Positions 9,009-45,894 of a stretch of DNA of 64,000 bases are shown piece after piece. This DNA is from Candidatus Latescibacterota bacterium. Lineage in GTDB: Bacteria; Latescibacterota; UBA2968; UBA8231. Location: NCBI GenBank assembly GCA_965206595.1, contig OZ242214.1:6989162-7053161 (forward strand). The letters run 5' to 3'. The notes under the pieces are model-generated. The model saw only the letters and a program-made list of their open reading frames with translations, did no database searches and was not told the origin of the DNA. Positions within the stretch are counted from its first letter, which is position 1, and each line of letters opens with the position of its first letter. The position numbers and the translations under genes are program-made.

Positions 9009-10670
9009 TCACTCTTCCCCTTTGCGAATCTGCAAGCTCGCCGCTACCTGCCTTATACGTTCGTCGCGCCATTCGACCCCGCTCCGGTAGCGGTGGCGCA
9101 GCCCCTCGACGTACTTCTCGAACGCCTTCCTGTTCCTGGCCTGCCTGACCTGGTGCCGCAGAATCGGGGTCAGTTCCTCGAACGCGCGCGGCCTCCGGGG
9201 CAGCCGCTCTTCGACGCGCACGACCGCGAACCCGCCTTCGATTTCAAGCGGACCCAGCAGCGCTCCCTCTGGCGCTTCCCGGACGAGATCGAAGAGCCGT
9301 TCCCGTTTTTCCCCTTCCCCGTCTTTCAGGTGTAAATGCCCGCCGGTTCCGTCGGCCCCCGGACGGATGCTGTGGTCCCGGGCCAGCTTCTCCATGTCCG
9401 CGCCCGACTCGATCCGCCGCCGCAGCGCGGCCGCGGCGGCCCGTGACTCGACGAAGATCTCTACCGCCTCCACCGACGCCGGCAGCATGAACTCTCCCTT
9501 GACTTCCTCGTACCGGTGACGCAGCTCCTCCTCCGTGGGGGCGCCGACCTGATCGATAACCTCCCGGCGCCGCAGCCGATCGAGGAGCAGCCTCTTCAGC
9601 TCCCGCTCCATCGCCGACGCGAACTCATCGGTTTCGTGAAGGACGCGGCGCTCCGCTTCCAGCACCGCCAGGGTGTCGGCCATCACCCAGTGGCGGAGAG
9701 CCCAGGCGACTGAGGCGCTGTCCTTCAGGGCAGGGGGTTTCATCCCCCTTCTAACCAGGATTCGTCCGGCCTCCTGCGCGGAGATCTTTCTGTCGCCCGC
9801 CCAGGCAAGGGCGGGGTCGTCCTGGTGTGCCTCGGTCCCGGGATCCCGCTGCGCCGCCCCAACCATGGCGACCACCGCTTCGGGCCGGTAGGCGACCTCG
9901 AATTTGCGTGCCAGCGTGTCGAAAAAGGCCTCGCGGAGGGTTGCGGCTTTGCGGCGCTTCAGGGCCGCGGCGACCGCCGGCCCAGCCTCCTCGATGGGGA
10001 CCGGGACGGCATCGAGAACCTTGAGCAGCTCGAAACCGCTTCCCGCGGGCAGCGGTCCGGCGACTTCGCCCGGGGACACCCCGCGCACCGCCATCCAGAG
10101 CTCACGCGGCAGCTCGCCGGCCCCGAGATAGCCGCCCAGGTCCCCGCCCCGTTCGGCGTCGGGCGCGGCCGAGCGCCTCCTGGCCAGCTCGGCGAAGTCC
10201 GCCCCCTCCTTCAGGGCGCGGCCGACCTCTTCCGCTTCCGCCTTCGTAGCGCAGGAGATATGGGCGATCCGCACCTTCGCGTCCCATCCGTCCCGCCGGT
10301 ACGCCGCCTCGATCTCCTCCTCTCCGACGGAGACGGAATCACCCAGGGCCTCGGCGAGGACCCGATCCCTGAGCCGCTTCACGTAGGTTTTGCGGAGCGG
10401 CCTGACGATCTCGGGTCTTTCAGGGTATCCGAGGGCCCTCGCCTCGGCGAGCATCAGCTCGCGGTCGACGAGACTCTGGAGCATATCGCGGACCGTCCCC
10501 TCCCGCGATTCGGACGCGGCCGGATCCGGCCTCAGGCCGTCCGGCAGCCTCGACACATACTCGGCAAGCTCCCCTTCCCGGATGGGGACGTCCAGCACCC
10601 GCACGAGGGGTTCGTCGGCGGGCACGCCGCAGCCGATCAGGAGGAGGAGCGCCGGCGCCGCCCGGTTCAC
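9009..10670 (-). CDS. Parvulin (PpiC/SurA-like) peptidyl-prolyl isomerase, two rotamase domains, probable lipoprotein
   Basis: GTG overlaps upstream TGA; lipobox-like LLLIGC; GADFAELARRRS..GGDLG and GADMEKLARDHS..GGHL. Confidence 0.85.
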   Translation of the reverse strand: MNRAAPALLLLIGCGVPADEPLVRVLDVPIREGELAEYVSRLPDGLRPDPAASESREGTVRDMLQSLVDRELMLAEARALGYPERPEIVRPLRKTYVKRLRDRVLAEALGDSVSVGEEEIEAAYRRDGWDAKVRIAHISCATKAEAEEVGRALKEGADFAELARRRSAAPDAERGGDLGGYLGAGELPRELWMAVRGVSPGEVAGPLPAGSGFELLKVLDAVPVPIEEAGPAVAAALKRRKAATLREAFFDTLARKFEVAYRPEAVVAMVGAAQRDPGTEAHQDDPALAWAGDRKISAQEAGRILVRRGMKPPALKDSASVAWALRHWVMADTLAVLEAERRVLHETDEFASAMERELKRLLLDRLRRREVIDQVGAPTEEELRHRYEEVKGEFMLPASVEAVEIFVESRAAAAALRRRIESGADMEKLARDHSIRPGADGTGGHLHLKDGEGEKRERLFDLVREAPEGALLGPLEIEGGFAVVRVEERLPRRPRAFEELTPILRHQVRQARNRKAFEKYVEGLRHRYRSGVEWRDERIRQVAASLQIRKGEE

Positions 10671-13309
10671 AGCTGAACTCCTGCGTAGATGGTGATGAAG
10701 CTTCGCGTCGTCACCTCCGGCCTCAGACCCTCCGGGTCCGTGCGCACCAGCTCGAAACCGAAGGTCGTCATCAGGTCGTACCCCATGTACGCGGAGGCGT
10801 TGCGCAGCTGTACCGCGGTCGTCAGCCCGGTCGAGCTGTCCTCGCTGTCGGGCGGAGGCGGGTCCCGCAGCTGCCTGAAGATCTCGTACTCCATCCCCAG
10901 CTCGACGAAGCTCTTCCGCATCACCGGAAAGCGCAGCATCGCCATGAACAGCTCGGTCAGCTCGCGGCGCTTGAATTCGTCGGCGAACACCGGCACCTGG
11001 CGCCGGTACTCGCTCTTCCAGCGCGGCACCAGGGTCCACTTGCCGAGCTCGAGGGTGTACTCCGCCTTGTTGATAATGCCCAGGAAGGAGCCGTCCCGGC
11101 GCGTCCCGTGCCGGCGCAGCTCGAGGTCCTCGTCGAGCTGGTGGTAGCGCTGCCATTTGAGCTTGTGGGTCAGACTGATCCCGGCCGGAACCCGGTGATG
11201 CAGCCCCAGCCAGGTGGTGTTGATCCAAGTGTTCCTCGCCGGCCTCCGGTCCTCGACCAGCTGCAGCGCCCCGCGGGTGCCCGCGGGCTGGCGCCACTGC
11301 AGGAGATCGTCGGCGATCGTGTCCCTGACCCGGCGAAAATCCTGGAAAACCAGGAGGCGGCCCCAGCGCGGGTGGTCGCGCTCGCCGACCAGGGTGACGT
11401 AGGACGCCTCGGTGACGCGGTCGTCGGTCTGCTGGTCCATCTGCAGGCGCCCCACCATGAGGCGGGAGTCCGGGCCGAGGTTGGCGCCGCCGAACAGGTT
11501 GAAACCCTCCCGGTCCCGCTTGTACGGGTAGTCCGGCTCCTCGTCGTTCTCGAAGCGGTCTACGACGGCGTTGTGGTTCATGTCGACGCCGTAGAGGAAC
11601 TCCGGCCGGTCGGCGTGGAAACGCAGGAACGGCTCCTCGTAGTCGGGGATCAGGTTGGGGCGGTCCTCGTTGTCGTTCTGGTTGAAATCGGAGATGAAAT
11701 CGTTGTTCTCGTCCCAGCCGGGGAACACCTCGTCGTCGCCGGCCCCCCAGCCCTTGCGCCGCCAGTCCGGCCGCTGGTCCTGGTCGTCGTTGTCCTCGAC
11801 CATCTCGTAGAGCTCGAAATCGTTCCCGAAGTCGAGCACCCCGGTCTCGTTCGAGGTGACAAACGAGGTCGAGTAGCGCGGCGAAACGCTGAACAGCTCG
11901 ACGAAACCGAACCAGGGAAGGGCCGTCTTCGACAGGTTGGCCATCCAGGCCAGCGCCTGGCTGCTCGCGGAGTGGTGGCTCTTCAGTCCGGGGTTGGGGT
12001 ACTGGCGGAACTGGTGGTTGACGTCGATCTCGGCGTACCCCTTGAACCCGTGCAGTTCGGCGACCTCGAGGGTGAACCCGGCGATCTGGTTGGCCGTCGG
12101 CAGGCCGTAGTCGAGCGCCAGCACGCGCTGGTTGGAGCCGTCCTTGACGTTGCCCGAGGCCTGCGCCGCCGGCAGGAAGACCCGCTGGTCCCTGCCGTTG
12201 TACTGGCGGTCGGAAGACATCTCGACCAGGTAGTCGTTGGCGACCACCAGTTCCACCTGGACCTGCTCGATGTCGGTGGTGCTCGGACCGATGTAGCTGA
12301 CGTCGGTGAAGTCGTAGCGCAGCTGGATCTCCTCGGTGCCGTCGGCGGAGAGATAGCCGCGGCGCTCGAAGCCGCCGTCGACGAAGGGACGGAACCCGAT
12401 CTCGCTGCCGCGCACCTCGTTCCCCTCTACGTCGCGGATGAGGATGTCGCTGGAGAAGAAGGCGCCGCCCCCTTCGTTGTCCCCGGGTGAGTCGTCCTTG
12501 ATCGCCACGGCGATCTCCGTCACCGCGGCGAAGTTCATCGCCTCGGTCAGCTGCCCCTGGAAGATGTCGCCGTTGACCGCCTCGAGCTGGGACTGCGAGT
12601 GGTGGGTGTTTACATAGGTGCCGCCGATGCGGGCGAAGTCGCCGACCTGGGCGACCACCCTTCCCCCGAAGAGGTTGGTGTTGTTGGTCCGCGCCTCCCC
12701 GGCGAACCCGGACGAGTTGGGGGCGCTCACCCGCGACATCAGCACCGTAGCCTCGTACTTGTCGGAGGAGAAATCCCACTGGACGCCGTTGAACAGCGGC
12801 TTGGAGAAGGTCATCGGCGTCAGGGTGGTGCGGATCCGGCTGCCCACGGTGATCGCGTAGTGGTACTGCCCCTTGTGGTCGGCGGCGACGACGAGGTTGT
12901 TGAACCAGGCATTGAACTGGCCCGTCTTCTCGAGGGTGCTGCCGAAAGGCTGCGGGTTCCGCTGCCGCCAGTCGTAGATCAGCCAGCCCCGCGTCAGGTA
13001 GTTCCCGTATACGTCGTAGAAATACTCCCCCTCGAGGGCGGTTCTGACGTAGCGCTGGTACTGGCGCCTCGAGTAGTTCGAGTACTCCCGCTGGCGCCAC
13101 TGGTACTCGATGTAGAGCTCCTGGGGCACGTACCACTTGTGCACCGCCGGATCGAGGGCGTCGGTGAGAATCCCCGGGCCGGTCGGCTCGAAGGTCACCC
13201 GTCCCCCTCGCGTCACCGTTCCCAGGCGGGCGCCGAACTCCTGGGCTTCGAGGGCGGTTGCGGCCAGCAGCAGGGCGGCCGCGATAGTGAGAATCGGAGG
13301 TGTCATCAC
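10667..13309 (-). CDS. Secreted ~880-aa hypothetical protein, predicted outer-membrane beta-barrel with Asp/Asn-rich insert
   Basis: Signal peptide; amphipathic aromatic strands; C-terminus SFITIYAGVQL; paralog of 15210-17885. Confidence 0.75.
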   Translation of the reverse strand: MMTPPILTIAAALLLAATALEAQEFGARLGTVTRGGRVTFEPTGPGILTDALDPAVHKWYVPQELYIEYQWRQREYSNYSRRQYQRYVRTALEGEYFYDVYGNYLTRGWLIYDWRQRNPQPFGSTLEKTGQFNAWFNNLVVAADHKGQYHYAITVGSRIRTTLTPMTFSKPLFNGVQWDFSSDKYEATVLMSRVSAPNSSGFAGEARTNNTNLFGGRVVAQVGDFARIGGTYVNTHHSQSQLEAVNGDIFQGQLTEAMNFAAVTEIAVAIKDDSPGDNEGGGAFFSSDILIRDVEGNEVRGSEIGFRPFVDGGFERRGYLSADGTEEIQLRYDFTDVSYIGPSTTDIEQVQVELVVANDYLVEMSSDRQYNGRDQRVFLPAAQASGNVKDGSNQRVLALDYGLPTANQIAGFTLEVAELHGFKGYAEIDVNHQFRQYPNPGLKSHHSASSQALAWMANLSKTALPWFGFVELFSVSPRYSTSFVTSNETGVLDFGNDFELYEMVEDNDDQDQRPDWRRKGWGAGDDEVFPGWDENNDFISDFNQNDNEDRPNLIPDYEEPFLRFHADRPEFLYGVDMNHNAVVDRFENDEEPDYPYKRDREGFNLFGGANLGPDSRLMVGRLQMDQQTDDRVTEASYVTLVGERDHPRWGRLLVFQDFRRVRDTIADDLLQWRQPAGTRGALQLVEDRRPARNTWINTTWLGLHHRVPAGISLTHKLKWQRYHQLDEDLELRRHGTRRDGSFLGIINKAEYTLELGKWTLVPRWKSEYRRQVPVFADEFKRRELTELFMAMLRFPVMRKSFVELGMEYEIFRQLRDPPPPDSEDSSTGLTTAVQLRNASAYMGYDLMTTFGFELVRTDPEGLRPEVTTRSFITIYAGVQL

Positions 13310-15210
13310 CAGGCCACCGCCAGGACGCCGGAGTGGGTCTCCTCGAATGCATCCGCGGCGACCCGGAGCACCCAGACGTAGGTCCCGGGAAGCGCCCTGC
13401 GGCCCTCGGCCGTGCGCCCGTCCCAGGTGAAGGCGGCCGGCCCCAGGCCCCGCTCCGCCTGCAGCGAGGCGATGGAGCGGCCAGACAGATCGTACAGCTC
13501 CAGGGATACCGGCACCGCCCGGACCACCTGCAGCAGGTTGAAACGGACCCGCAGCTCGTCGTTGGCGCCGTCCCCGTTCGGGGTGACGACGCGGCTGTCG
13601 AGGGCGATCTCCCCGACCAGCCGGCCGATCTGATCCTTGGGGATCTCGACGGTGAGGTTGGACAGCTCGTCGACGTCGTCCGGCCCGAAGTCGACGGCGT
13701 TGCCCGGCTCGAGCCGCTGCGGCACGGTAGGGAAGCGGCTGTCGAACACCCTCCCTGTGAAGGTCGTGCCGAAGCGGAAGATCGGGATGTCGAAGGTCAG
13801 CTCGAGGACGGAGCCGTCGCGGTCGATCCTCGGCAGGCTGATGCGGAAGCCGTCCCGGGTCGAGGACTCGATCTCGAACTCGACCGGGACGCCGTCGACC
13901 TGGACGTTGCCGATCCCCTCGACCGGGGCGTTGCTGTCGATCTCGAGGCGGTCGTACCCGTGGATCTCGCCCCCGCGGCGCAGGAGCACGGCGTAGCGGA
14001 AGGTCGCCGGCTCCTCCGCCCTGGCCAGCCGCGGGTACACCTCGGCGCGCAGGGTGTCGGCGATCGGAGGCTGCAGGTAGTCGAACTCGATCCTCTCGAG
14101 GAGCCGCGTGTCGAAGAGGCCGCCGGCGAACTCCATGCGGAAGCGGAGGAATCGCCGCGGCGCCGGCGCCGGGTTGAGGCCGCGGTTCTCCACCGTCTTC
14201 CAGGGGCTCCAGTTTTCCAGGTCTTCCTGGAGCGTCACCTGCTCGGACCGGGGCAGGGCCCAGTACTCCTCTCCCGTCACCTCGTCGAGGCGGACGAACA
14301 TAAACTCCTGAATCCGCTGCAGGAACAGGATCGGCGTATCGTCGAGGCCGGAGCGCATGCCGACGGTCAGGTTGGAGAAGAGCTCCTCCCCCACGACCTG
14401 CTCGCGCCAGCGGATCGACCCGATGGTAGCCGGCGCCCCCAGGTCGATCAGGTCCGACAGGAAGGTGCCCCGGGGCAGGTACCCGGACCCGTACACCTCG
14501 ATCTCGTCGACCTCGAACGGCAGCTCGGTCAGGGAACGCAGCTTGATGAGGCGGACGTACTGCGGGGTCAGCGGCACGTCGACCACCGGCTCCTCGTTGT
14601 CGTGCTCCCGCACCGCGAGGCGGTCGGGGGCTCCCTCGATCGTGCTGGTCAGCTGCTCGTTCAGCCAGACCTCGTAGCCGCGCAGGAAGTCGTTGTGGAA
14701 GGGATGGTCGGGACTGGCGGCCACGGTGTTGCGCGGGTAGAAGCGGATGCGCTCGACCCCGACCCGCTGACCGAAGTCGAGGATGATCCAGATGCCGAAC
14801 GCCGGCACCACCGGGTTGAACGGCACCGGCTTGCGCTCGAAGGCGACCTCGTGATCGCCGTTGACCGTGCCCTCGAGCTGCGTTCGGCGCAGCACCGTCG
14901 CCGAGGTCGAGGAGTTGGGCGCCGTGATCGAGCCCTCCCCCTCGAGCACCAGCGCTGCGATGTTACGGCTGCCGTCGAAGAAAGTCGGGCTGACCCAGCC
15001 GCGCCGGGCAGCGAACTCGATGTCGTTGTCCGGGGTGTTGGTCGTGTCGAGGGTGGGGCTGAAGCGGCTGCCGGCAAGGATCACCGGATCGGTGCCGTCG
15101 CCGCCTCCCTCCCAGGGATGCTCGCTGCCCCCGAGAACGAAGGTCCGCATCTCTGCGGCCGCCGCGGACAGCGCCAGCAGAACCAGGGCGGCCGCCAGGG
15201 TCGGCGCCAT
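13306..15210 (-). CDS. Secreted protein with discoidin/F5-8C-like domain and C-terminal TPNGDG + FlgD-Ig domain
   Basis: MAPTLAAALVLLALSAAAA; ILDFGQRVGVERIRFYPR...EVDEIEVYG; VTPNGDGANDE...WDGRTAEGRRALPGTYVW. Confidence 0.8.
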   Translation of the reverse strand: MAPTLAAALVLLALSAAAAEMRTFVLGGSEHPWEGGGDGTDPVILAGSRFSPTLDTTNTPDNDIEFAARRGWVSPTFFDGSRNIAALVLEGEGSITAPNSSTSATVLRRTQLEGTVNGDHEVAFERKPVPFNPVVPAFGIWIILDFGQRVGVERIRFYPRNTVAASPDHPFHNDFLRGYEVWLNEQLTSTIEGAPDRLAVREHDNEEPVVDVPLTPQYVRLIKLRSLTELPFEVDEIEVYGSGYLPRGTFLSDLIDLGAPATIGSIRWREQVVGEELFSNLTVGMRSGLDDTPILFLQRIQEFMFVRLDEVTGEEYWALPRSEQVTLQEDLENWSPWKTVENRGLNPAPAPRRFLRFRMEFAGGLFDTRLLERIEFDYLQPPIADTLRAEVYPRLARAEEPATFRYAVLLRRGGEIHGYDRLEIDSNAPVEGIGNVQVDGVPVEFEIESSTRDGFRISLPRIDRDGSVLELTFDIPIFRFGTTFTGRVFDSRFPTVPQRLEPGNAVDFGPDDVDELSNLTVEIPKDQIGRLVGEIALDSRVVTPNGDGANDELRVRFNLLQVVRAVPVSLELYDLSGRSIASLQAERGLGPAAFTWDGRTAEGRRALPGTYVWVLRVAADAFEETHSGVLAVAW

Positions 15211-17885
15211 CACTCCAGCCCCGCGTTCACGGTGAAGAACATCAGGTTCGCCCGCTCGCGGCGCCCGAACTCGAAGGCCCGCCGCGTCCACTGCATTCCG
15301 GTGCGCGTGACGATCCGGTACCCCTGGTAGGCGACCTGATTGGTCAGCTGCACGACCACCGTCCAGGAGCGCAGGTCCTGGTCGATTTCCGCCCGCCTCC
15401 CCTTCAGCATCCACAGCTTCGACAGCTCGAGGCCGACCCGCAGCTCGGTGTCGAAGATCTGCCTGCCGTATCTGGCGAAGTACGAGGCCCGCGTCTGCTC
15501 GGCCAGCAGCGGCTGCGACCAGGTCAGGAAAACCGTCTCCTCGACGCTGGCCGCCTTCTCCCGGCGGCTCCGGTAGGGGCGGTCGAAGCGCACCTCGCTC
15601 TTCCAGCGCGGCTGGAAGAACCCGAGGCCGACCGGCAGCGACCACTCCGCCTTGTCGATGAGGCCGACGAACCCGGACCGCTTGCGCGCCAGCCTGCGCG
15701 CCACGGTCTCGTCGCCGTCGCGCTGGAGGGCGATGTCCCACTTGAAGCGGTGCAGCAGGCGCAGGTCCTCGACGAGGCGGTGGCTGAGGTCGGCGTAGAA
15801 GGAGTTCTTCCAGGTGTTGCGCGCCGCCAGCGGGTCCTCGAGGTCGCGCATGCGCCCGATGGCGCCGACCGGCTGCACCCACTGCTGCAGGTCGTCGGGG
15901 ACGTCGTCCCTGACCAGGGCGCCGAAGTCGAAGACCCGCACCTTCCCGAACCCGGACAGCTCCCGCTTCCAGGCCGCCATCCCGTACACCGCCCGGGTGT
16001 GCCCGTCGCCGGAGATCAGGCCGCTGTTCTGGCGGCCGGCGAGGAGACTGCCGCCCCCTCCGGCCTGCACTTTCAGGTAGAGGTTGTAGCCGCGCTGATC
16101 CCTTCGGTACGGATAGTCCGGGAGGCGGTCGTTCTCGAACCGGTCGATGGTGCCGTTGTGGTTCATGTCGGTGCCGAAGAGGAACTCCGGGCGGTCCGAG
16201 CGGTAGCGCAGGAACGGCTCGTCGTAGTCGGGGAACAGGTTGAGGTTCTGGTTGTGGTCGTGGATGAAGTCGCCGTTCTCGTCGTACCCCGGCCAGGCGA
16301 CTTCCCGCGTCGAGGGCTGGAACGGCCGCTCCCATTCCGGGACGGCGTTGAAGTCGTCGTCGTCGACGACGAACTCGTAGAGGTCGGCTATGCGCGCCTT
16401 GAAGCGGATGGTGCCGTCCGATTGCGTCAACCAGTAGGCGGTCGCGTAGGCGTCGTCGATGGAGAACAGCTCGGCGTACAGCTTCCACGGGAAGCGCTGG
16501 TACGCGGCCTGGGCGTAGCCGGCGCGGGCGTTGCGGGTCGCGTGGTGCTGGAGCCCCTCCTCGAGGTTGGGGTACTTGCCGTGGCGCCGGTTGAGCACCG
16601 CCTCCCCCTGCAGCGACAGGCCGCCGGCGTCGACGACGTTGAAGTCGACGCCGATCAGCTCGTTCCCGGTCGGCAGCAGGTAGTCGAGCTTCAGCACCCT
16701 GCTGTTGCTGTTGTCGCTGACGTTGCCGCGGGCGCGGGCGACGGTGGTGAAGACCGGCTCGGCGTTGCGGACCTCGCCGTCGGTCTGCAGGTCGGAGGCC
16801 ATCTCGACCCGGTAGTCGTCGGCCACCGCCAGCTCGAAGCTGAGGCGCTGCAGGTCGAGCGACTCCATCCCCTGCTCCTCGCCGAGGGAGGCGAGGTCGT
16901 ACTCGAGCACCGCGGCCTCGCTGCCGTCGGCGGCGATCGCCCCTTCGCGCAGCACCCCGCCCCGTATCGTCGGCACCAGGCCGATGTCGCGGCCCCGGTG
17001 CACGCGCCCCGACTGGTCGACGAGGATGATCTCGTGGCGGAACAGCGCGGCCCCGCCGACACCGTCTTCCGGGGAGTCGTCGCGCAGGCGCACCCACACC
17101 TTCTTCAGCGGCTGGTTCTGCTTGGTCGTCAGCGCCCCGTGCAGCGGGTTGCCGACGTTGAAGTCGACCTGCGTCTGCGCGTTGTGGGCGTTTACATAGG
17201 TAGCCCCCATGGCGACCGCGTCGAGGACGCGGAACGAGGTGTGGCCGCCGAACAGGTGGGTCGAGTTGCTGCGCCGCGCCTGATCCGGGCTGCTGGGCCG
17301 CGAAAGCAGCAGCGACGACTGGTGGCGGTCGGAGGCGATCTCGAGACGCAGGCCGTTGAAGCGGGGCTTGTTGAAGGTGAGCGGCGTCAGGTGGGTGGAG
17401 ATCTGGTCGCCGATCATCAGACGGAACTGGTGGTCCCAGTGCCCGTCCGAGGCGATGACGAGGTTCTGGAAGATGCTGCCGTAGAAATCGGTGGCGGCCG
17501 GGTCGGCCGGCCTCTTGCGCAGGAAGCTGCCGTTGCGCAGCGACTGCCGCTGTTCCCAGGAGTAGACCAGCCAGCCGCGGCCGAGATGGTTGCCGAAGGA
17601 GTCGTACCACTCGTCCCCTTCGAGCTGGCGGTCCAGGTAGCGCTTGTAGAATTGGGTCGAGTAGCCGGTGTCGGTGGCGAACCAGGGATAGCGGTGGTAC
17701 TCCGGCAGGTGGATGGGGACGTAGTTCTTGTGCACCTCGGGAACGACGTCCTCCATGCCGAAGGAGGGAGCGAGCCTGACTGGCAGGGCCGACGGCGTCG
17801 CCCCGGGAACGGCGCCCGGGTACTGGGCCCAGCACAGCTGCGCCGCGGCCCCCGCGACGGCCAGGGATGTCAGCAGCCTTCCCAT
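15210..17885 (-). CDS. Secreted 891-aa hypothetical protein, predicted outer-membrane beta-barrel with Asp/Asn-rich insert
   Basis: Signal peptide; shared blocks with 10667-13309 (LTPxTFxKPxFNG, PGxDENxDFIxDxNQN, DRPEFLxGxDMNHNxxxDRFEND); C-terminus MFFTVNAGLE. Confidence 0.75.
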   Translation of the reverse strand: MGRLLTSLAVAGAAAQLCWAQYPGAVPGATPSALPVRLAPSFGMEDVVPEVHKNYVPIHLPEYHRYPWFATDTGYSTQFYKRYLDRQLEGDEWYDSFGNHLGRGWLVYSWEQRQSLRNGSFLRKRPADPAATDFYGSIFQNLVIASDGHWDHQFRLMIGDQISTHLTPLTFNKPRFNGLRLEIASDRHQSSLLLSRPSSPDQARRSNSTHLFGGHTSFRVLDAVAMGATYVNAHNAQTQVDFNVGNPLHGALTTKQNQPLKKVWVRLRDDSPEDGVGGAALFRHEIILVDQSGRVHRGRDIGLVPTIRGGVLREGAIAADGSEAAVLEYDLASLGEEQGMESLDLQRLSFELAVADDYRVEMASDLQTDGEVRNAEPVFTTVARARGNVSDNSNSRVLKLDYLLPTGNELIGVDFNVVDAGGLSLQGEAVLNRRHGKYPNLEEGLQHHATRNARAGYAQAAYQRFPWKLYAELFSIDDAYATAYWLTQSDGTIRFKARIADLYEFVVDDDDFNAVPEWERPFQPSTREVAWPGYDENGDFIHDHNQNLNLFPDYDEPFLRYRSDRPEFLFGTDMNHNGTIDRFENDRLPDYPYRRDQRGYNLYLKVQAGGGGSLLAGRQNSGLISGDGHTRAVYGMAAWKRELSGFGKVRVFDFGALVRDDVPDDLQQWVQPVGAIGRMRDLEDPLAARNTWKNSFYADLSHRLVEDLRLLHRFKWDIALQRDGDETVARRLARKRSGFVGLIDKAEWSLPVGLGFFQPRWKSEVRFDRPYRSRREKAASVEETVFLTWSQPLLAEQTRASYFARYGRQIFDTELRVGLELSKLWMLKGRRAEIDQDLRSWTVVVQLTNQVAYQGYRIVTRTGMQWTRRAFEFGRRERANLMFFTVNAGLE

Positions 17886-20521
17886 CAGTACACCACCCCG
17901 ACCGCGGCCAGCGCCGATCCTGCGGCATCGGCATCGGTAGGTACCGAGACGCGCACGAGGTACAGGCCCGGACCGACCCGCCGGCCCTCGTCGTCGCGGC
18001 CGTCCCAGGGAACCGCGTGCTGTCCGCTGGGAATCTCCCGCACCCCCCCGAGGTCGCGCACCTTGCGGCCCGACAGGTCGTACACCCCCACCCGCAGGTC
18101 GCGCTCCCCCTTGATGCGGAACACGGAGAAGCGGATCCGGGTGGCCTCGTTGACGCCGTCGCCGTTGGGCGTGAACAAGGCCGGCTCGGCCCGCACGTTT
18201 TCGAGAATGGGGGCGTCCTCGACATCGGCGACCACCACCATCGACTCGCTGCGCACATCGCTGCTCGCGTCCCCTTCGGTGAAGGCCTGCACCACCCCGG
18301 GCCGCTGCGAGTTCAGCAGCTCCACCGTGAACGTGGTCCCGCTCAGGAACACCTGCGTCCGTATCTCCGCCCTGTAGAGCAGGGAACCGCCCGAAACCCG
18401 CTGCGGCAGCTCGACGACGACCCCGCCTTCCTCAAGGGCTTCGATGCGGGCGCCGCCGGGCCACAGGCTCCTGCCGCGGCCGCCGCGCAGCTGCGCCTCG
18501 CTCCCCGACTGCAGCGACACCAGCTCGATCGGGGCCGCCGAGGAGGAGCGCAGGCGCATGCGGTCGAACCCGGAATCGCCGCTCTGGAACTCCGGCCGCA
18601 TCCAGATGGCGAACTCCTCCTCCCTTCCGGGGCGCACCCCCTGGTTCGGCCAGATCTCGGCGAAGGTCTGTTCGACCAGCGGCGCCTCCAGCCCCAGCTC
18701 GATGCCCCGGATGCTCGCCGCGCGCAGCGGGTCGGCCGTCGACAGGCGCACCTGCAGCATCAGCATGCGCCGCGGACCGGGAGACCTGAACGGTTCCCCC
18801 TGCTCCCGGTACGGCTCGCTCCAGGCGCTCCAGCCTTCCCCGGGGAACTCCTCCGAGGTGGTGAACCCCCGGTTGCGCTCCGCGGTCGCATCCCACTGCT
18901 GCTCGCTGATCTCGCGCCCGAACAGGTCGTAGTACCTCTTGACCTCCAGCAGGTCGTCGCCGCTGCGGCTGCGCACCTCGAGGCGGGTGCCCTCCGGCGC
19001 CTCCCCGTCCCAGGAGACCCCGGTGAAGATGCGCGAGGTCCCCAGCTTGATGATCGGGGACTCCAGGACGACCTCGGAGACGAACCCCTCGCCGTACGCC
19101 TGCAGCTCGCTCAGGCTGCGGTTGATCTCGCTCCGCGCCCCGGAGAGCTCGAGACGGCGCAGCTCGATCAGGCGCACCTCTCGCGCCGGGAAGCGCTCCT
19201 CGAGCTGCAGGAACGCCTCCCTGTTATGGCGCTCCTCGAAATCCTCCCAGACCCGGTTGCCGTTGGGGTCGACCGAGCCGTCCGAAACGCGCAGCTGGTA
19301 GGCGGTGAGGGCGTCCTGGGCGCTGAGCAGCCGGAGGCGGTCGATCCAGAACTTTGCCCCCAGGTCGACGAGAAGCTGGTTGCGGTTGCGCAGCGGGTCG
19401 TACAGCCGCATCGGGTAGAAGGAGGAGTAGAGACCGTCTGTCGAGACCGTCAGGACGATGTCCTCGAACAGGTCGGTGGCGCGGTTGCGCAGGCGCTGCG
19501 TCAGCCCGACTGCGTTGTCGCCGAGGGTGATGACCTCGAGCTCGGCGACGCGGGGGCGCTCGTGCCGGTAGTAGCGGACCGGGCCCTGCTCCTCGTCGGG
19601 CAGTTCCCCCCAGGTCTCCTCATCGACCAGAATCTCGCGGCCGGCTACGGTCTGGCGGAAATGCTCGACTGCCCCCCGGTCGTGGTCGGACAGCAGGGCG
19701 TACTCCTCCCCGGTGACCTCCTCGCCGCGCGGACCGTCGGTGTCGAGCGCCTCGAGGCGGACGATCTGCGCCACTTCGCCGGCGACCCCGGGGGGCAGCG
19801 GCCGCTGCAGCGGCACCTCGAACTCGAACTCCCGCTGCTCCTTGTTGCGGCGGGTCACCTGGGCGACGCGGTAGAACTCGGCGTCGTAGCGGCTCGCGGT
19901 GTTGACGGAGGCGCGCCCGTTGGACATCAGCACGCGGAACTTCAGGAAGGGGTCCCCCGCCCCTTCATCGGCGAACTGCACCCGCACCCGGTCGGCGATC
20001 ACGGCGCGCCCGAGGTCCACCTCGATAAACCAGTTTTGCAGCGAGTCGGGGTCGACGGGCTCCCAGTAGGTCAGGGGGTCGCCGTCCATGACCAGGGCCG
20101 CGGTCTCCCGGCCGGTGCCGACCTGCCGCACTCCCCCGATGATGGTATCCCCACTGGCGATCACCTCGAAGTCGGTGGCGTTCAGCATGGCGTTGATGCC
20201 GCGCCGCAGGTATCTCGGCCTCACTTCCCCCTCCTCGACCAGGTAACCGCCCACGGCCCCCAGCCAGTCCCGCCAGTGGCCGTCCCCGCTCACGGTGAGG
20301 CGGTTCCCGGCGACGGTGTAGCCGTCCTGGGCGTTCCCCGCCGCGGTGCCGAGCAGGACCACGGACAGCAGGACCAAGTGACGGTGCCGCGTGAGGAGGT
20401 TCGGGGAAGGCTGCGCGGCTTGGAACGACCGACAACAATCAGGGTGAGGCCCTGTTCCCGTCGCGATCCGTCCGGCTCGTTTCGCCGGGGAGGTTGCCCC
20501 GCAGGTCGACAGGCCACGCAT
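17885..20521 (-). CDS. Secreted protein with two discoidin-like domains and C-terminal TPNGDG + FlgD-Ig domain
   Basis: TAATG coupling; hydrophobic stretch LVLLSVVLLGTAAG; DGDPLTYW..IEVDLGR; VDLGAKFWIDRLRL; FTPNGDGVNE...WDGRDDEGRRVGPGLYLV. Confidence 0.8.
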   Translation of the reverse strand: MRGLSTCGATSPAKRAGRIATGTGPHPDCCRSFQAAQPSPNLLTRHRHLVLLSVVLLGTAAGNAQDGYTVAGNRLTVSGDGHWRDWLGAVGGYLVEEGEVRPRYLRRGINAMLNATDFEVIASGDTIIGGVRQVGTGRETAALVMDGDPLTYWEPVDPDSLQNWFIEVDLGRAVIADRVRVQFADEGAGDPFLKFRVLMSNGRASVNTASRYDAEFYRVAQVTRRNKEQREFEFEVPLQRPLPPGVAGEVAQIVRLEALDTDGPRGEEVTGEEYALLSDHDRGAVEHFRQTVAGREILVDEETWGELPDEEQGPVRYYRHERPRVAELEVITLGDNAVGLTQRLRNRATDLFEDIVLTVSTDGLYSSFYPMRLYDPLRNRNQLLVDLGAKFWIDRLRLLSAQDALTAYQLRVSDGSVDPNGNRVWEDFEERHNREAFLQLEERFPAREVRLIELRRLELSGARSEINRSLSELQAYGEGFVSEVVLESPIIKLGTSRIFTGVSWDGEAPEGTRLEVRSRSGDDLLEVKRYYDLFGREISEQQWDATAERNRGFTTSEEFPGEGWSAWSEPYREQGEPFRSPGPRRMLMLQVRLSTADPLRAASIRGIELGLEAPLVEQTFAEIWPNQGVRPGREEEFAIWMRPEFQSGDSGFDRMRLRSSSAAPIELVSLQSGSEAQLRGGRGRSLWPGGARIEALEEGGVVVELPQRVSGGSLLYRAEIRTQVFLSGTTFTVELLNSQRPGVVQAFTEGDASSDVRSESMVVVADVEDAPILENVRAEPALFTPNGDGVNEATRIRFSVFRIKGERDLRVGVYDLSGRKVRDLGGVREIPSGQHAVPWDGRDDEGRRVGPGLYLVRVSVPTDADAAGSALAAVGVVY

Positions 20522-22452
20522 TAGTACACCACCGCCACGATTCCCTGCCGCACCTCGGGATCGCCGTCGCCGCGCACCCTGAGCCGGTAGATGTAGGTTC
20601 CCGGGGGTACGAGGGCGCCGTCGCTGCGGCGGCCGTCCCATACCTGCCGGTGGTTGCCGACCGGCTGCACCGCCTCGACCGCCGCCACCCGGCGCCCCCC
20701 GAGATCGAACAACAACAGCTCCACCGGAGAAGGCCGCGTCACCGTAAGCAGGGAGTAACCGATCTTCAACTCGTCGTTGATCCCGTCCCCGTTCGGGGTC
20801 AGCACCGGGTGTTGGAGCTCGAAGTTGGCCAGCAGCGGGGCGCGTTCCCCCTGTTTCTCCAGGGAGACGACCAGGCCCTGCGCCGCGGTTTCCGAATCGG
20901 CGTCTCCCGGGACCGCGAAGTGATACCCCGTCTCCTCGACATCGACCGTCCCTTCAGAGGTCCGCCTGCCTACGACGCGGTCGTCGAGGACGCGGACCCG
21001 GAACGCGGTCTTGTCGCGGTACACCGTGCCCAGAAAGATCACCTGGATGAACGACCCGTCCTGCTCAACCTGCCGCCGCAGGTCGACGTACACGCCGTCC
21101 GGGTGCCGCCGGGAGATGAAAGCCACAGCGCGGTCGTCGATGCGGACCTGCCGCACCCGCCCGATGTCAGCATCGGTCTCTATCAGGATGCGTTGGAAAC
21201 CGGTATCGCTGCGTCCGACCCGGCTTCCGGAAGTGGCAATCTTCATGTGGGCCAGCATCGCCAGGGAGAACTCCGTCTCCACCCCCGCGGCCACCGTGTC
21301 GGGGCTCACCTCCGCGACCACGCCTTGCACCAGCGGCGGGAAGATGGTCTCGAACACCAGACGGTCGAGGCGCACCCCGGGGGTGAACAGGCGCACCCGG
21401 AACTGCATGTACGTCTCGAGATTCCGGGAACGCACTACCCCCTGCGACACCGGCTCCCAGCTGCTCCAGTTCGGGTTCGGGCGGATCGGTCCCCGCAGGT
21501 GAGGTTTCGCGGCCGTGTACTCGGCCCGGTCCTTGGCCCTGACGATCTCGTCCCCATCCTCCTCGCGAAGGAAGTACCACTCCGCCTCCTTGTCGGGTCC
21601 CACCCGGGTATGGATCAGCACGGGGGAGGAATCGACCCCCCGACCCTCGAAGCGGACCAGGCCGAACACCCTCAACCCCAACCGCATCGACTTCGAGCGG
21701 AACTCACCCGTCGGCAGCGAGCCGTCCCCGTAGACCTCCAGCTCGGCGATCTCCCAGGGCCGCTGCGAGGTCGGGGCGATGCGGACGTAGCGGACGTCCC
21801 GGGATTCGAACCGCTTCTCGACCACCGGCTGGAAGTTGGGAAGGGCGGGGTAGAAGGAGAACAGCTCCTCGAAGTCGCCGAGGACGCCCGAAGGGTGGGT
21901 GGCGACGGAGAACTCCTGCAGAAAGCGGCGCTGGTTGCGCGGGTCGAGGCGGGGAAACAACCGAATCCGGTTGACGCGGAAGGTTGCCCCGAGGTCGAGG
22001 TGGATGGCGGTGGTCCGCCCGAGCCCCGGCCTCCGGGCCTGCTGTGAGATCACGTCGGCGTCGTAGTAGGTAACGGGGTCGCCGTCGGAGAGCACCTCGG
22101 CGCCGGCTATCTCTACTGGAACCGGCCCTAAAAATCCCGGTACGATCCGGAGAATCCGGCCATTCCGCTGACCCATGGTCAGGGACAGGTTGGCGTCCGG
22201 CTCGACGCCCCACATCCAGATCGAGTCGGGCCCGACTCCCATGAACCGGGAGGCCTCCCGGAGCTCATTCCAGCCGCCCTGCCGGGAGTTAAGGCCGACG
22301 ACGAGGGAGTCGACGGCGGCGGCGGATTCGACCAGAACGAGAAGAGAAAGGAGAATGGAGGCGGGAACAGCGGGGGCGAACTTCGAGGCAGGAAGGGGAA
22401 ATCGCCCTGTAATCGCATCGCACCTCTTTCCAAGCGCTGTGCTCATTCCCAT
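20521..22452 (-). CDS. Secreted protein with discoidin-like domain and C-terminal TPNGDG + FlgD-Ig domain
   Basis: Start ATG 22452 or 22446 after GGAGGG; DGDPVTY, HLDLGATFRVNRIRLFPR, WEIAELEVYG; LTPNGDGINDE...WDGRRSDGALVPPGTYIY. Confidence 0.8.
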   Translation of the reverse strand: MGMSTALGKRCDAITGRFPLPASKFAPAVPASILLSLLVLVESAAAVDSLVVGLNSRQGGWNELREASRFMGVGPDSIWMWGVEPDANLSLTMGQRNGRILRIVPGFLGPVPVEIAGAEVLSDGDPVTYYDADVISQQARRPGLGRTTAIHLDLGATFRVNRIRLFPRLDPRNQRRFLQEFSVATHPSGVLGDFEELFSFYPALPNFQPVVEKRFESRDVRYVRIAPTSQRPWEIAELEVYGDGSLPTGEFRSKSMRLGLRVFGLVRFEGRGVDSSPVLIHTRVGPDKEAEWYFLREEDGDEIVRAKDRAEYTAAKPHLRGPIRPNPNWSSWEPVSQGVVRSRNLETYMQFRVRLFTPGVRLDRLVFETIFPPLVQGVVAEVSPDTVAAGVETEFSLAMLAHMKIATSGSRVGRSDTGFQRILIETDADIGRVRQVRIDDRAVAFISRRHPDGVYVDLRRQVEQDGSFIQVIFLGTVYRDKTAFRVRVLDDRVVGRRTSEGTVDVEETGYHFAVPGDADSETAAQGLVVSLEKQGERAPLLANFELQHPVLTPNGDGINDELKIGYSLLTVTRPSPVELLLFDLGGRRVAAVEAVQPVGNHRQVWDGRRSDGALVPPGTYIYRLRVRGDGDPEVRQGIVAVVY

Positions 22453-22790
22453 TTCCCTCCGCGGAGCGGGCCGAAAGGGGCCGGCTCCAACCCAAAGGTT
22501 CACCTAAAAAGTTGCGGGCAATGTAGCTGAAACGAATACGCACACCAACTTTAAAATTAAATTTCCCGAGGACGGGATGTTCAGGACGTATTCTTTGCAA
22601 AAACGGCTCATAGGTTCGACGTCCGGCTCCAGTGCAATTCAGGATTGGTCGATAGCTTCTTCCCGCGGACCGTTGGATACCCCCGCACCTCCGCTGTGAT
22701 CTCCGTTTCCGGCGAGGGACGACCAATCGGGACAGAGGCAGATGCCGCAATCCGGGGGCGAGGTGGGGGTTTGGCATGATCCCAGCCTTG

Positions 22791-23243
22791 TTACGAGGTC
22801 CGGCTCCCTCCTTCGATGTCGTCCAGTCCGTCGATCTCCGGGCGGAAATACCGCTTGCCCGCGGCAATGCTTTGGATCGCCGGGACCAGGTCACGAGCTA
22901 TCGAATTCTTGACGACGTACCCCGAAGCGCCCGCATCGAGCATCGCCTGGACGTAGATCCTTTCGCAGTGAATGGAAAGGGCCACCACCCGCACCTCAGG
23001 CAGTTCGGCGCCGATCTGCCGGGTGGCGCTGATGCCGCCGCCCCCCGGCATGCTGATGTCCATGACGACGACGTCCGGTTGCAGCAGGCGCGCCTGTTCC
23101 AGGGCGGATTCCCCGTCGACCGCCTCGCCGACCACCTCCATGCCGTCCTGCCCGACAAGAAGCGCCTTGACCTCTTCTCTCAGCATTTCGTGGTCGTCTG
23201 CCAGAACTATCCTGATGGTCATGATACTTTCACACTTTCTCAC
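22791..23243 (-). CDS. NarL-type response regulator receiver domain without DNA-binding domain
   Basis: IVLADDH, PDVVVMDISMP, GASGYVVK; ends before any LuxR HTH. Confidence 0.85.
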   Translation of the reverse strand: MRKCESIMTIRIVLADDHEMLREEVKALLVGQDGMEVVGEAVDGESALEQARLLQPDVVVMDISMPGGGGISATRQIGAELPEVRVVALSIHCERIYVQAMLDAGASGYVVKNSIARDLVPAIQSIAAGKRYFRPEIDGLDDIEGGSRTS

Positions 23244-23482: not shown

Positions 23483-24337
23483 GAACCTATCTCAAAATTG
23501 AAATTGTTTAAGTAAAATCAAAATGGATGCAAGTTGGACGAAGCCAAGAAAATTCTCCGGATACAATTCCCAGCGAGTGATCACTCGACGCTGCCATTGA
23601 AGCCAAGCAAAGAATCTCTCAACCATCCAAGGCCGCACATAACGCCGCAATCGCCGTCCGTCCTGAGTCTTTTTCTTGGTCCGATTCTGGCGATGCGGGG
23701 CGATCATCTCGATCCCGTCTTTCTTAAGCTCTTCATCCAACGAATCGCTGTCGTACGCCTTGTCGCCGATCAAGTTGTCAGGTTGGTCTTCGATCAGGTA
23801 AAAGTCAAAGGTCAACTGAACCAGCGTCACTTCATGATGGTTCGCTGCATGCGTGCTCACCGACAAGGGAAGCCCATTGCCGTCCACGATCCCCATGACC
23901 CGCACCCCCTTACCTCGCTTGGTGTGGCCGATATCGGCACCTCCACCCTTGGCCGCCGAGAACAGGCCGTCGATGAAAGCCTCCGATTCGTCCAGGTCCC
24001 CTTGCTCGTGAAGGGTCTGGGCCAGGTCCATGAGAACATCGCGCAGCACCTCGTTGCGACACCAATTTTGAAAGCGACGATGCACCGTTTTGTAGTTCGG
24101 ATAGCCCTGCGGCAGCATGTGCCATTGGGCACCGGTATTGAGAATCCAAAGGACGGCTTCAAGAACCTCACGTGTGGCAACTGGTTTGCGGCCCGGATGG
24201 CTTTTGGGACGATTTTCTTCAGGAAAGTGATGACGGATTCGCTCCCATTGCTTGTCGGTCAAAGTAACCATATAAATAATGATACATTATCATCAATCAG
24301 AACCCAAGATTAAATTTTGTGATTTTGAGATAGGTTC
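23483..24337 (-). mobile_element. IS5-family element copy 1 (mosaic)
   Basis: Terminal IRs GAACCTATCTCAAAA / TTTTGAGATAGGTTC. Confidence 0.9.
23492..24271 (-). CDS. IS5-family transposase
   Basis: LTDKQW, TGAQW, YKTVHRRF, GDKAYDSD, VERFFAWL. Confidence 0.92.
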   Translation of the reverse strand: MVTLTDKQWERIRHHFPEENRPKSHPGRKPVATREVLEAVLWILNTGAQWHMLPQGYPNYKTVHRRFQNWCRNEVLRDVLMDLAQTLHEQGDLDESEAFIDGLFSAAKGGGADIGHTKRGKGVRVMGIVDGNGLPLSVSTHAANHHEVTLVQLTFDFYLIEDQPDNLIGDKAYDSDSLDEELKKDGIEMIAPHRQNRTKKKTQDGRRLRRYVRPWMVERFFAWLQWQRRVITRWELYPENFLGFVQLASILILLKQFQF

Positions 24338-24849: not shown

Positions 24850-25703
24850 GAACCTATCTCAAAATTGAAATTGTTTAAGTAAAATCAAAATGGATGCAAG
24901 TTGGACGAAGCCAAGAAAATTCTCCGGATACAATTCCCAGCGAGTGATCACTCGACGCTGCCATTGAAGCCAAGCAAAGAATCTCTCAACCATCCAACGC
25001 CGCACATAACGCCGCAATCGCCGTCCGTCCTGAGTCTTTTTCTTGGTCCGATTCTGGCGATGCGGGGCGATCATCTCGATCCCGTCTTTCTTACGTTCTT
25101 CATCCAACGAATCGCTGTCGTACGCTTTGTCGCCGATCAAGTTGTCAGGTTGGTCTTCGATGAGGTAAAAGTCAAAGGTCAACTGAACCAGCGTCACTTC
25201 ATGATGGTTCGCTGCATGCGTGCTCACCGACAAGGGAAGCCCATTGCCGTCCACGATCCCCATGACCCGCACCCCCTTACCTCGCTTGGTGTGGCCGATA
25301 TCGGCACCTCCACCCTTGGCCGCCGAGAACATGCCGTCGATGAAAGCCTCCGATTCGTCCAGGCCCCCTTGCTCGTGAAGGGTCTGGGCCAGGTCCATGA
25401 GAACTTCGCGTACCACCCCTTGACGACACCCGTTTTGAAAACGGCGATGAACGGTTTTGTAGTTCGGATAGCACGGCGGCAACATAGGCCATTGAGCCCC
25501 GGTGTTTAGAATCCAAAGGACGGCTTCAAAAACATCACGGGTGCAAACCGGTTTGCGACCCGGATGGCTCTTGGGACGAAGTTCTTCAGGAAAGTGATGG
25601 CGGATTCGTTGCCATTGCATGTCGGTCAGGTTGACCATACACCAATGGTACATCACTGTCATTTCGAAAACAAGTTTAAGTTTGCCTGTTTTGAGATAGG
25701 TTC
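24850..25703 (-). mobile_element. IS5-family element copy 2 (transposase 24859 to ~25638)
   Basis: Same IRs; transposase MVNLTDMQW...LKQFQF. Confidence 0.9.
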
Positions 25704-25706
25704 TCA

Positions 25707-26553
25707 TTACCGCAGCGATGCCTTGATACGTCCCCAGGTGACGGACTCGACGGCTGTATCCTGAGCGCGAAGCAGCACCCCGTCCAGGAAGCCATTAGCC
25801 TTGCCATTAAGAAGATCAAGATCATCTATGCGTTCAGCGTATATATCTACCGGAAGCCAGAATGGACCCATTCCGCGCTCTCTTCCGTCAGTATCGTTAA
25901 CTATAATGGAAAAACCTATTACCTGGTGTGCAGACAGTTCGCTGAATTCGGTTTGGTCTACCTCATCCCACGCCCCCCACCAGTTATATGGTGTGACATA
26001 CATCTCGATCACGCTGACGGTAGGATTTTCTCCGGCTGCTGTTCCCCCCGCATCCCCATAGGGAGGATAAACCTTCCACGAGTTAGGTAGCCCGCGGTCA
26101 TACCAAATTGGGGAATGGCCCACTCTGATTTGGTTGTCCAACGTAGGGCCGCTTACTGTTTGAGCTATGACTGTGATCTGCATCAATATTGAAAAGTACA
26201 CTGTCAAACAGAAGCACAGACGCGTTATTGTCCTCAGTATAGTTATGTGTGTTGTTGTATTCGTCGTCTATAATGATGAAGGCCGCATAAATGCGATTCG
26301 ACTCGTCATGCCAAGCCAGCCAAATGCGAAAATCCAGGTTGGATGGTTCGGGCGGGATCAGATTGCCCAAAGTCTGGAAATCCAGGAGGGTCATACTGGG
26401 CTCGCCGATCTCGTACCATTCGTCAATCAGCCCGTCATGCAAGTCGATCGTTCCCAGCATCTCATCCGTAAGCTCGTAGATGGGATACAGGCGATCCCCG
26501 CTGTGAGCTGAGGCCACGGCGGTCCATATGAGCAGTGCGATCAGTTGTTTCAT
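25707..26553 (-). pseudogene. Secreted CBM9/DOMON-like protein with C-terminal TAVESVTWGRIK tail, frameshifted
   Basis: MKQLIALLIWTAVASA signal; IDLHDGLIDEW, WLAWHDESNRIY; C-half in another frame (shift ~26160-26190). Confidence 0.65.
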
Positions 26554-29052: not shown

Positions 29053-29113
29053 GGGCGTCTTAAGTAATTGTCATAGCGCAATTCAGGTGGCGTATGTGTA
29101 TATTTTACAGTAA
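27854..29113 (+). CDS. IS256-family (Mutator) transposase; last ~20 aa derive from ISKra4
   Basis: RNG.GKPR, LYLHGLSQGDF, WADGIY, QRCWNHK, LRTTNPVESPF. Confidence 0.9.
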   Translation: MRESTLESVAPAMPTFATLETWARSSIQDLLQRVPEEEVTEFLGRTRYRRRSAVDGTPGSRNGHGKPRQVSLMSGTIEVRRPRVRGLEERFESRILPLFMRRTHEVTRMLPELYLHGLSQGDFERALRGLLGNGAPLSASSIGRLRAQWEEELETWRERRLDDRELVYAWADGIYVKAGLEKDKAALLVVIGALSDGRKEVLAVWPGHRESTESWLKVLRDLRDRGLRAPLLLMADGGLPIWSATEQVWPQASHQRCWNHKILNVLDDLPKRVQGKARALLTQIPSAETRQEAENRRSTFARRYRDRYPQAVATLERDWKRMVTFYDFPREHWKHLRTTNPVESPFASLRLRTNAGKRYKRVQGATALIWRVLMVAEKRFRKLNAPELLPLVYAGQQYQVGVLSNCHSAIQVAYVYILQ

Positions 29114-35141: not shown

Positions 35142-35239
35142 CGCTGGTTTGGGAGGGCCTTGGGTGTCAGGATGTATCAGGAAAGATAAGGCACTTTTTG
35201 GAGCCTCTTTCTAAGGAACCCGGGGCAAGGGCCAGGGCA

Positions 35240-45740: not shown

Positions 45741-45894
45741 GGGGGTCGCCGTATCCGGAAAAATCAAAAACACACACCCAATCCCGAAGATACCGACGGA
45801 CCTGAAAACACGCTAGGTATTTTTTTAGATGCTCAAACTACAACCGCAGGGGACTGAACGGTTACGTTCGCCAGAAGTGAAGCTACCCCCGATT

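Follow-up and report, generated by a model that had tools for sequence, protein, structure and literature searches.

What kind of system is encoded by six overlapping genes near the end of the genome of an uncultured bacterium, Candidatus Latescibacterota (GenBank assembly GCA_965206595.1, contig OZ242214.1), was the question raised by a stretch of 64,000 nucleotides, positions 6,989,162 to 7,053,161 of the forward strand, here called the window, which is the end of the 7.05-Mb single-contig genome. The genes lie on the minus strand at window positions 9009-22452 in the order A1, A2, B1, A3, B2, and P (open reading frame [ORF] listing and translation; Table 1), where the A proteins are predicted exported, lectin-like cargo, the B proteins giant β-barrels, and P a parvulin lipoprotein. 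The operon represents one of many copies of an undescribed A/B module found in uncultured Latescibacterota. Our preferred explanation, to which we give slightly less than an even chance, is that the B proteins are non-homologous stand-ins for the PorP/SprF anchors of type IX secretion systems (T9SS) and hold SprA-exported A proteins at the surface. What is known of the T9SS and of how it sorts cargo comes almost entirely from Bacteroidota. In the sister candidate phylum considered here, SprA and PorU are retained without detectable PorP/SprF, and dozens of type-B-like cargo genes per genome are coupled to unannotated barrels. If B is an anchor or shuttle, T9SS cargo sorting would have been solved twice with unrelated barrels, and B would offer a handle on the surface building of uncultured Latescibacterota.

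All six genes are intact, and stop and start overlap at five of five junctions (TAATG, TGATG, GTGATG, GTGATG, and GTGA), with a GC content of about 68% across the operon. With the ATG of A2 at 20521, 48 residues precede the hydrophobic core of its signal peptide; a TTG at codon 49 is the sole start lying nearer, and its use would make the A1/A2 junction a 144-nt spacer with no overlap. In more distant orthologs, the A2 start directly follows the A1 stop. Export signals were judged by eye from the translations: A1, A2, A3, B1, and B2 each show a hydrophobic core and, behind it, an Ala-rich stretch resembling a cleavage site, and the N terminus of P carries the lipobox-like LLLLIGC. The order of B1-like, A3-like, and B2-like genes was kept in 20 of 20 orthologous loci of other metagenome-assembled genomes (MAGs), so the operon is real and not a chance arrangement. 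B1 identity was 90 to 94% in two of these loci and 48 to 55% in the other eighteen, and an A gene stood before the B1-like gene in 18 of the 19 loci that extended far enough.

The module is repeated within the genome itself, where ORF-level tblastn located 32 B genes of at least 600 amino acids (aa) in 19 runs of one to four genes. An A-like gene heads 15 of the 19 runs (same strand, within 400 nt), and an A gene lies directly downstream of three of the other four. A-like genes of at least 400 aa numbered 60, and 15 of them have a B gene directly downstream. Other MAGs were scanned with one genome per species, giving 43 loci and 75 evaluable B genes after three at locus edges had been dropped; 61 of the 75 had an A gene within 400 nt upstream, 11 had another B gene, and three had neither, with a median A-B gap of 18 nt by the chosen starts. 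Some relatives (G085, G060, and G129) gave 114 to 171 first-look B candidates compared with the 32 B genes here, which suggests even larger B expansions in them. The sequence-only reading that preceded this analysis had described six intact genes with overlapping junctions and had labeled them passengers, barrels, and parvulin; the ORF listing and junction strings bear out the former, and the domain calls agree with the latter. Its picture of a singular operon was not supported, the locus being one of the 19 B runs.

What are the barrels? B1 and B2 share 37% identity over 866 columns (E = 2e-178), and neither matched a Pfam or NCBIfam family at E ≤ 0.01 when the whole protein was searched. The acidic inserts of both and the N-terminal region of B1 (104 residues) had no Pfam match even at E ≤ 10, and a B alignment profile found nothing meaningful among PDB sequences (best E, 0.67). 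In the ESM Atlas, the 30 clusters nearest to B were all unnamed and had no Pfam family in common; DUF6029 was the closest cluster with a name, at a score of 0.89, below the level counting as more than a lead. When a library of 50%-identity clusters was searched, the family accounted for 904 representatives (E ≤ 0.001), and its closest homologs are annotated as hypothetical proteins in MAGs of Latescibacterota, "Gemmatimonadetes," and Handelsmanbacteria. No published description of the family was found in the literature on Latescibacterota, T9SS, Gemmatimonadota, and Fibrobacter (supplements were outside the search), nor was any paper pairing Latescibacteria or Latescibacter with type IX secretion or T9SS. 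The part of one article available to us mentions only non-specific porins and TonB receptors (PMC4454575).

The AlphaFold2 model of B1, built on 51 relatives (predicted local distance difference test [pLDDT], 73.7; predicted template modeling score [pTM], 0.74), consists from residue 142 to residue 890 almost entirely of long β strands. Counting from the DSSP string, and not from coordinates, gives about 26 strands, split 13 and 13 by a 120-residue insert at 477-596, and strand parity in the same string would make the insert extracellular. Residues invariant across the family, mainly Asp, Asn, and Glu, lie mostly in this insert, which is Asp-rich and invariant at about 504-596 and includes DMNHNGTIDRFE, a stretch that fits the EF-hand calcium-loop pattern. 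The N-terminal region at about 40-125 is conserved and poorly modeled. The best Foldseek matches of B1 were SlpA, MtrB, LptD, SprA, and ushers (E, 2.5e-7 to 1e-4; template modeling score [TM], 0.13-0.27; identity, 6-8%), and 49 of the 50 listed rows were membrane barrels, the exception being a mosquito salivary protein at rank 46 (prob 0.03). All 50 listed VIA-align rows were likewise membrane barrels (Z, 9-13.7); no family stood out, and small generic barrels ranked equally high (Z, 12-13.7). On the model, B1 and B2 can safely be assigned to no more specific fold class than outer-membrane β-barrel.

Known barrel families were rejected on the same searches. PorP/SprF was dropped because B1 and B2 matched neither PF11751 nor TIGR03519, and TonB receptors including SusC because there was no Plug or receptor match, such receptors appearing only among the generic fold matches (Z, 9-12). 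SprA/Sov did not fit either, with no TIGR04189 match, a length of 879-891 aa against about 2,000 aa or more, and a TM of 0.23 to 8gl8_A in Foldseek; the SprA gene of the genome lies elsewhere than B1 and B2. Omp85/BamA, LptD, ushers, and SlpA_C gave no family match and generic fold matches only (TM ≤ 0.27). The B proteins share their size class and all-β barrel fold with SlpA (8ae1, 7zgx), MtrB (6r2q), LptD (5iv9), SprA (8gl8), and PapC/FimD, but no SLH, POTRA, LptD N-terminal domain, or usher plug was detected in them, and there was no match at sequence level. Barrels far larger than PorP/SprF and belonging to no known family, as first proposed from the letters of the window, are borne out by the model, Foldseek, VIA-align, and Pfam/NCBIfam; that proposal would have fallen with a soluble enzyme or a full-length match to a TonB receptor, BamA, or SprA, and neither was found.

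The A proteins are paralogous to each other (A1 versus A3, 30% identity over 535 columns; A2 versus A3, 29%), and domain and structure searches found nothing enzymatic in them. Their tails (LTPNGDGINDE, FTPNGDGVNEA, and VTPNGDGANDE) resemble the type-B C-terminal domain of the T9SS, with scores near or below the curated cut-offs. In Pfam, CHU_C scored 37.4 bits in A1 (cut-off, 27) and 33.6 bits, also over the cut-off, in A3; the F5/8 type C match of A1 was below its cut-off, and A2 carries F5_F8_type_C_2 (33.9 bits) and FlgD_ig (29.2 bits), both over theirs. Among 34 members of the A family, CHU_C (PF13585) matched 33, the type-B model TIGR04131 matched 19 (E ≤ 0.001), and the type-A model TIGR04183 matched one. 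The A C-terminal domain appears closest to the type-B T9SS signal (CHU_C), and the type-B-like tails noticed earlier in the window are supported across the family by CHU_C and, in 19 of the 34 members, by TIGR04131.

The A3 model, built on 34 relatives, reached a pLDDT of 88.2. Residues 79-245, approximately, adopt a CBM32/discoidin fold whose best CBM32 match had a Z of 15.3 and a root mean square deviation (rmsd) of 2.1 Å over 123 residues, and the matched modules bind galactose, N-acetylgalactosamine (GalNAc), and fucose; further β-sandwich domains are present in the model. The tail (528-634) superposes on the C-terminal domain of PorU (6za2_B, 1054-1157) with a Z of 13.0 and an rmsd of 2.3 Å over 99 residues at 19% identity. 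Since the tail of PorU itself is usually classed with type A, the superposition marks a T9SS-type tail and not specifically a type-B one.

Which export route is available to proteins with such tails? The genome encodes SprA (TIGR04189, 488 and 116 bits, over cut-off) and PorU (NF033707, 617.6 bits, over cut-off), and directly after PorU lies a PorV-like gene (141 bits, under the cut-off of 250), the two being likely the T9SS sortase-shuttle pair of this genome. The SprA gene is about 5 kb from a B-B-A-A cluster, with LptF/LptG genes on the opposite strand between them. A second PorU-like gene (Peptidase_C25, 246.8 bits; NF033707, 254 bits, under cut-off) is found about 3 kb from the A/B/P cluster at contig positions 4996353-5011758, and its product could be a dedicated processing enzyme for A-type cargo. 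Domains resembling the PorU tail terminate more than 50 ORFs of the genome. With SprA, PorU, and a PorV-like protein encoded, export of the A proteins through the general T9SS is the more likely route; the A/B system is probably not self-contained, and the self-contained display system of the sequence-only reading is not supported. No PorP/SprF gene was detected in the genome with TIGR03519 or PF11751, of which TIGR03519 matched no control either, and PF11751 matched none of the 63 genomes of the bacterium's own family.

The same parts were followed across 151 related genomes of the phylum, a sample in which the pattern amounts to about 10 B-carrying families set against four that lack B. B was present in 94 of the 151 genomes, including 63 of 63 in the own family, and was missing throughout two other families belonging to the same class (0/30 and 0/19). 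SprA was found in 146 genomes, these two families included. CHU_C was found in 102 genomes: in 94 of 94 with B compared to 8 of 57 without B, the latter with one or two weak matches each. Weak PF11751 matches (23-28 bits) occurred in 17 of the 151 genomes, 13 of the 57 without B and 4 of the 94 with B.

P carries two parvulin domains (141-219 and 378-499), recognized in two stretches each by Rotamase_2 (79.5 bits), Rotamase (73.5 bits), and Rotamase_3 (53.2 bits), all over cut-off, and its closest solved relatives are the parvulin domains of PrsA and SurA. It is akin to the parvulin chaperones SurA, PrsA, and PpiD in its PPIC-type domains, of which it has two, but differs from them in being lipoprotein-like, in lying inside cargo/barrel operons, and in giving way to another lipoprotein in orthologs. 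P was rejected as a SurA equivalog (NF008038, 37.7 bits against a cut-off of 394, with only the parvulin part covered), and the N-terminal chaperone domain of SurA was not detected in it. The genome has 11 P-like units, 9 of them in or beside A/B clusters, and one more parvulin by Pfam. A P-like gene was present in 18 of the 43 related loci of other MAGs; among the orthologous operons, a parvulin follows B2 in two close relatives only. A leucine-rich repeat (LRR) lipoprotein of about 520 aa takes its place after B2 in four of four more distant orthologous operons (L017, L018, L019, and L021) checked among the 18 orthologs at about 48-55% identity. In host-associated bacteria, LRR proteins are a typical kind of "eukaryote-like" protein. 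The parvulin is optional in the A/B module, and the private chaperone formerly taken as a fixed part did not stand; synteny in other genomes, on which the sequence-only reading as a whole had been made to depend, was found for A and B and in part only for the peptidyl-prolyl isomerase.

In the mechanism that we propose, A1, A2, and A3 would cross the inner membrane by Sec, and their type-B-like C-terminal domain would guide them through the outer membrane via SprA, the general T9SS translocon. The barrel encoded directly downstream (B1 for A1 and A2, B2 for A3) would then take over and hold them at the surface, where the displayed CBM32-like domains may bind glycans. B would be the non-homologous counterpart of the small PorP/SprF barrels for type-B cargo, and the parvulin lipoprotein, an optional part, may serve in the periplasm as a foldase or holdase for the cargo or for the very large barrels. 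Gene structure, domain and fold assignments, synteny, the T9SS parts in the genome, and the co-occurrence pattern are observed; the export route, the contact between A and B, surface display, and glycan binding are what we infer. A complex prediction of full-length B2 with the A3 tail (530-634), run without controls, gave no verdict in either direction (scores, 0.11 and 0.00; mark, 0.32).

The parallel is with type-B cargo and its PorP/SprF barrels (SprB-SprF and Fjoh_3952-Fjoh_3951 of F. johnsoniae; PG1035-PorP-PorE of P. gingivalis). In the parts of two articles available to us, type-B cargo is said to need a porP/sprF-like shuttle encoded directly downstream, with orphans sharing a shuttle (PMC12618676), and PorP-like barrels to bind and anchor such cargo, as in PorP-PG1035 and SprF-SprB (PMC9143113). 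The A tails here likewise resemble CHU_C/TIGR04131 domains, the barrel gene is likewise directly downstream of the cargo gene, with B1 and B2 each overlapping the stop of the preceding A, many paralogous pairs and orphan cargo genes occur per genome, and SprA and PorU are present. In contrast to that system, the B proteins do not match PorP_SprF, are 880-890 aa long, have about 26 strands, contain an acidic insert that is invariant, and often stand in tandem runs of two to four; the accessory lipoprotein is a parvulin or LRR protein and not PorE, the host belongs to the Latescibacterota, and GldL, GldM, and GldN were not found.

Several observations weigh against B as an anchor for T9SS cargo. 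In A2, CHU_C reached 20.2 bits, under the cut-off of 27, and TIGR04131 was under its cut-off in all A proteins of the window (in A1, 19.3 against 35). Forty-five of the 60 A-like genes have no B directly downstream, and tandem runs of two to four B genes behind a single A are a poor fit to one anchor per cargo. B has no detectable sequence similarity or specific fold similarity to PorP/SprF and is about three times larger than PorP. Of the core T9SS genes, SprA, PorU, and a PorV-like gene were found in this genome and GldL, GldM, and GldN were not, with models that were silent in 14 of 14 control genomes and were run without any genome known to carry these genes as a positive control; the T9SS may be incomplete here, or powered otherwise than in Bacteroidota. 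The co-occurrence of B and CHU_C is partly built in, as A genes adjoin B genes and the genomes are related.

The B proteins might instead be the core of a new outer-membrane machine and not passive anchors, acting as calcium-braced wide pores that export A or that import glycans with A as a lid or binder. We regard this as rather doubtful; if B is a translocon or an importer, it would represent a new outer-membrane transport system.

Nutrient capture and import, with A proteins as glycan binders and B as a wide oligomer channel to the periplasm, would resemble SusC/SusD of Bacteroidota in function without kinship and is in our judgment unlikely. Adjacent and much multiplied binder and barrel genes are common to both, the binder here has a carbohydrate-binding-module fold, and the CBM32 fold of A3 (residues 79-245; Z up to 15.3) is that of galactose-, GalNAc-, and fucose-binding modules. 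The heavy expansion, from 32 B genes here to as many as 171 first-look candidates in one relative, is also as in nutrient-uptake loci. Flanks of 10 other A/B clusters of this genome were scanned (20 stretches, 77 ORFs) and point the same way in part: FG-GAP/UnbV_ASPIC proteins, some fused to tetratricopeptide repeats (TPR), recur in six stretches (L060, L061, L067, L070, L071, and L072), and two GHL10 proteins, one BNR_2 protein, and sugar-acid enzymes were present. TPR and PMT_2-TPR proteins also recur in these flanks, as do large DUF6785/DUF6784 proteins in three of them (L061, L062, and L067). No TonB system, including TonB/ExbBD genes, and no consistent enzyme set was seen in these 77 ORFs, however, and no glycoside hydrolase lies inside the operon. 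Neither a Plug nor a TonB-dependent receptor domain occurs in B, A is no TPR lipoprotein of the SusD type, the binder gene comes first, and the strict link to a T9SS-type secretion tail is left unexplained by import alone. Import is compatible with B as anchor, should B serve both to anchor A and as a solute channel.

Autonomous two-partner or usher-like secretion, in which B would be a SprA-independent translocon passing the folded domains of the upstream A serially, seems to us quite improbable. The strict A-then-B gene order would suit it, as would the roughly 26 strands counted, which put the barrel in one size class with ushers and LptD (both among the fold matches), the periplasmic foldase often encoded alongside, and the failure to find in the genome GldL, GldM, and GldN, which form the canonical motor and ring of the T9SS. 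The A tail is nevertheless a T9SS-type tail with the fold of the PorU C-terminal domain, SprA and PorU occur in 146 of the 151 phylum genomes, and the 45 of 60 A-like genes without an adjacent B bear the same kind of tail and hence need another route.

Two runs labeled as sponge metatranscriptome contain contigs that match fragments of A2, B1, A3, and B2 (about 93% identity). These contigs are a hint that the operon of a relative is transcribed; carry-over of DNA is possible, and such contigs cannot show a single transcript. By the labels of these two RNA runs, some B-carrying bacteria appear to be sponge associated. A structural envelope or coat of a sponge-associated bacterium, with B as an anchoring barrel like SlpA of Deinococcus and A as a surface layer or host-adhesion coat, could draw on these fragments, on the LRR lipoproteins that replace the parvulin in orthologous operons, and on SlpA (8ae1) as the top Foldseek match (E, 2.5e-7), but we consider it very improbable, as the match to SlpA, with a TM of 0.26, is weak and does not surpass those to MtrB or LptD, neither SLH nor SlpA_C was matched, and 19 divergent B runs in a genome look more like a diversified set of specificities than a single structural layer.

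Table 1. Coordinates of the operon genes and of other features mentioned in the text (window positions unless a contig or locus is named)
Feature	Position	Strand	Description
A1	20521-22452	-	643 aa, exported β-sandwich protein, discoidin-like region, C-terminal CHU_C/FlgD_ig domain
A2	17885-20521	-	878 aa, exported A paralog, discoidin domain, C-terminal FlgD_ig/CHU_C-like domain
B1	15210-17885	-	891 aa, predicted outer-membrane β-barrel, undescribed family
A3	13306-15210 (ATG) or 15213 (GTG)	-	634 aa, exported, CBM32/discoidin fold and T9SS-type C-terminal domain
B2	10667-13306 (ATG) or 13309 (GTG)	-	879 aa, B1 paralog
P	9009-10670 (GTG start)	-	553 aa, lipoprotein-like, two parvulin (PPIC-type) domains
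Upstream intergenic region	22453-22790	-	relatively AT-rich; presumed promoter and 5' leader
Response-regulator receiver gene	22791-23222	-	143 aa, stand-alone, Pfam Response_reg 86 bits
LRR lipoprotein genes	L017:17452-19011, L018:10188-11744, L019:17305-18846, L021:18199-19752		position after B2
PorU and PorV-like pair	contig 138567-142999		likely sortase-shuttle pair
Second PorU-like gene	contig 5014598-5018758 (L073:3141-7301)		near an A/B/P cluster
SprA gene and B-B-A-A cluster	contig 6657307-6662565 and 6667529-6678225		about 5 kb apart
Transposase ORFs	23492-24271, 24859-25707, 27788-29113, 40780-42450, 44445-45812		
GmrSD-type restriction endonuclease gene	33432-35210	-	GmrSD_N and GmrSD_C
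UxuA ORF	45922-46473	-	183 aa, probably truncated

Upstream of A1, the last 200 nt or so of the intergenic region are 90% conserved in the close relative L015. A 21-nt insertion at 22554, beside a small hairpin at 22564-22577, was present in one DNA run (X4) and is strain variation in the presumed promoter or leader. A scan for the sigma-70 consensus returned 0 sites, and terminator-like sites were about as frequent as expected by chance (8 against 6.7); neither a promoter nor a terminator is claimed. The receiver gene 338 nt upstream of A1 is NarL-like and has no output domain. It is also directly upstream of A1 in the close relative L037 (89% aa identity) and was not found in the other close relative, L015. 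The receiver is a possible regulator of the operon, and its membership in the unit is uncertain.

An insertion sequence (IS) element lies just upstream of the receiver gene, and transposase genes occupy much of the region from 23.5 to 46 kb. The IS-shredded neighborhood described earlier was confirmed in part, as five transposase ORFs and a UxuA fragment within 23492-46473. The UxuA (D-mannonate dehydratase) ORF adjoins an IS66 transposase and covers only positions 204-351 of the 352 in the profile, and is probably a truncated gene. A gene for a GmrSD-type restriction endonuclease is located amid the IS elements.

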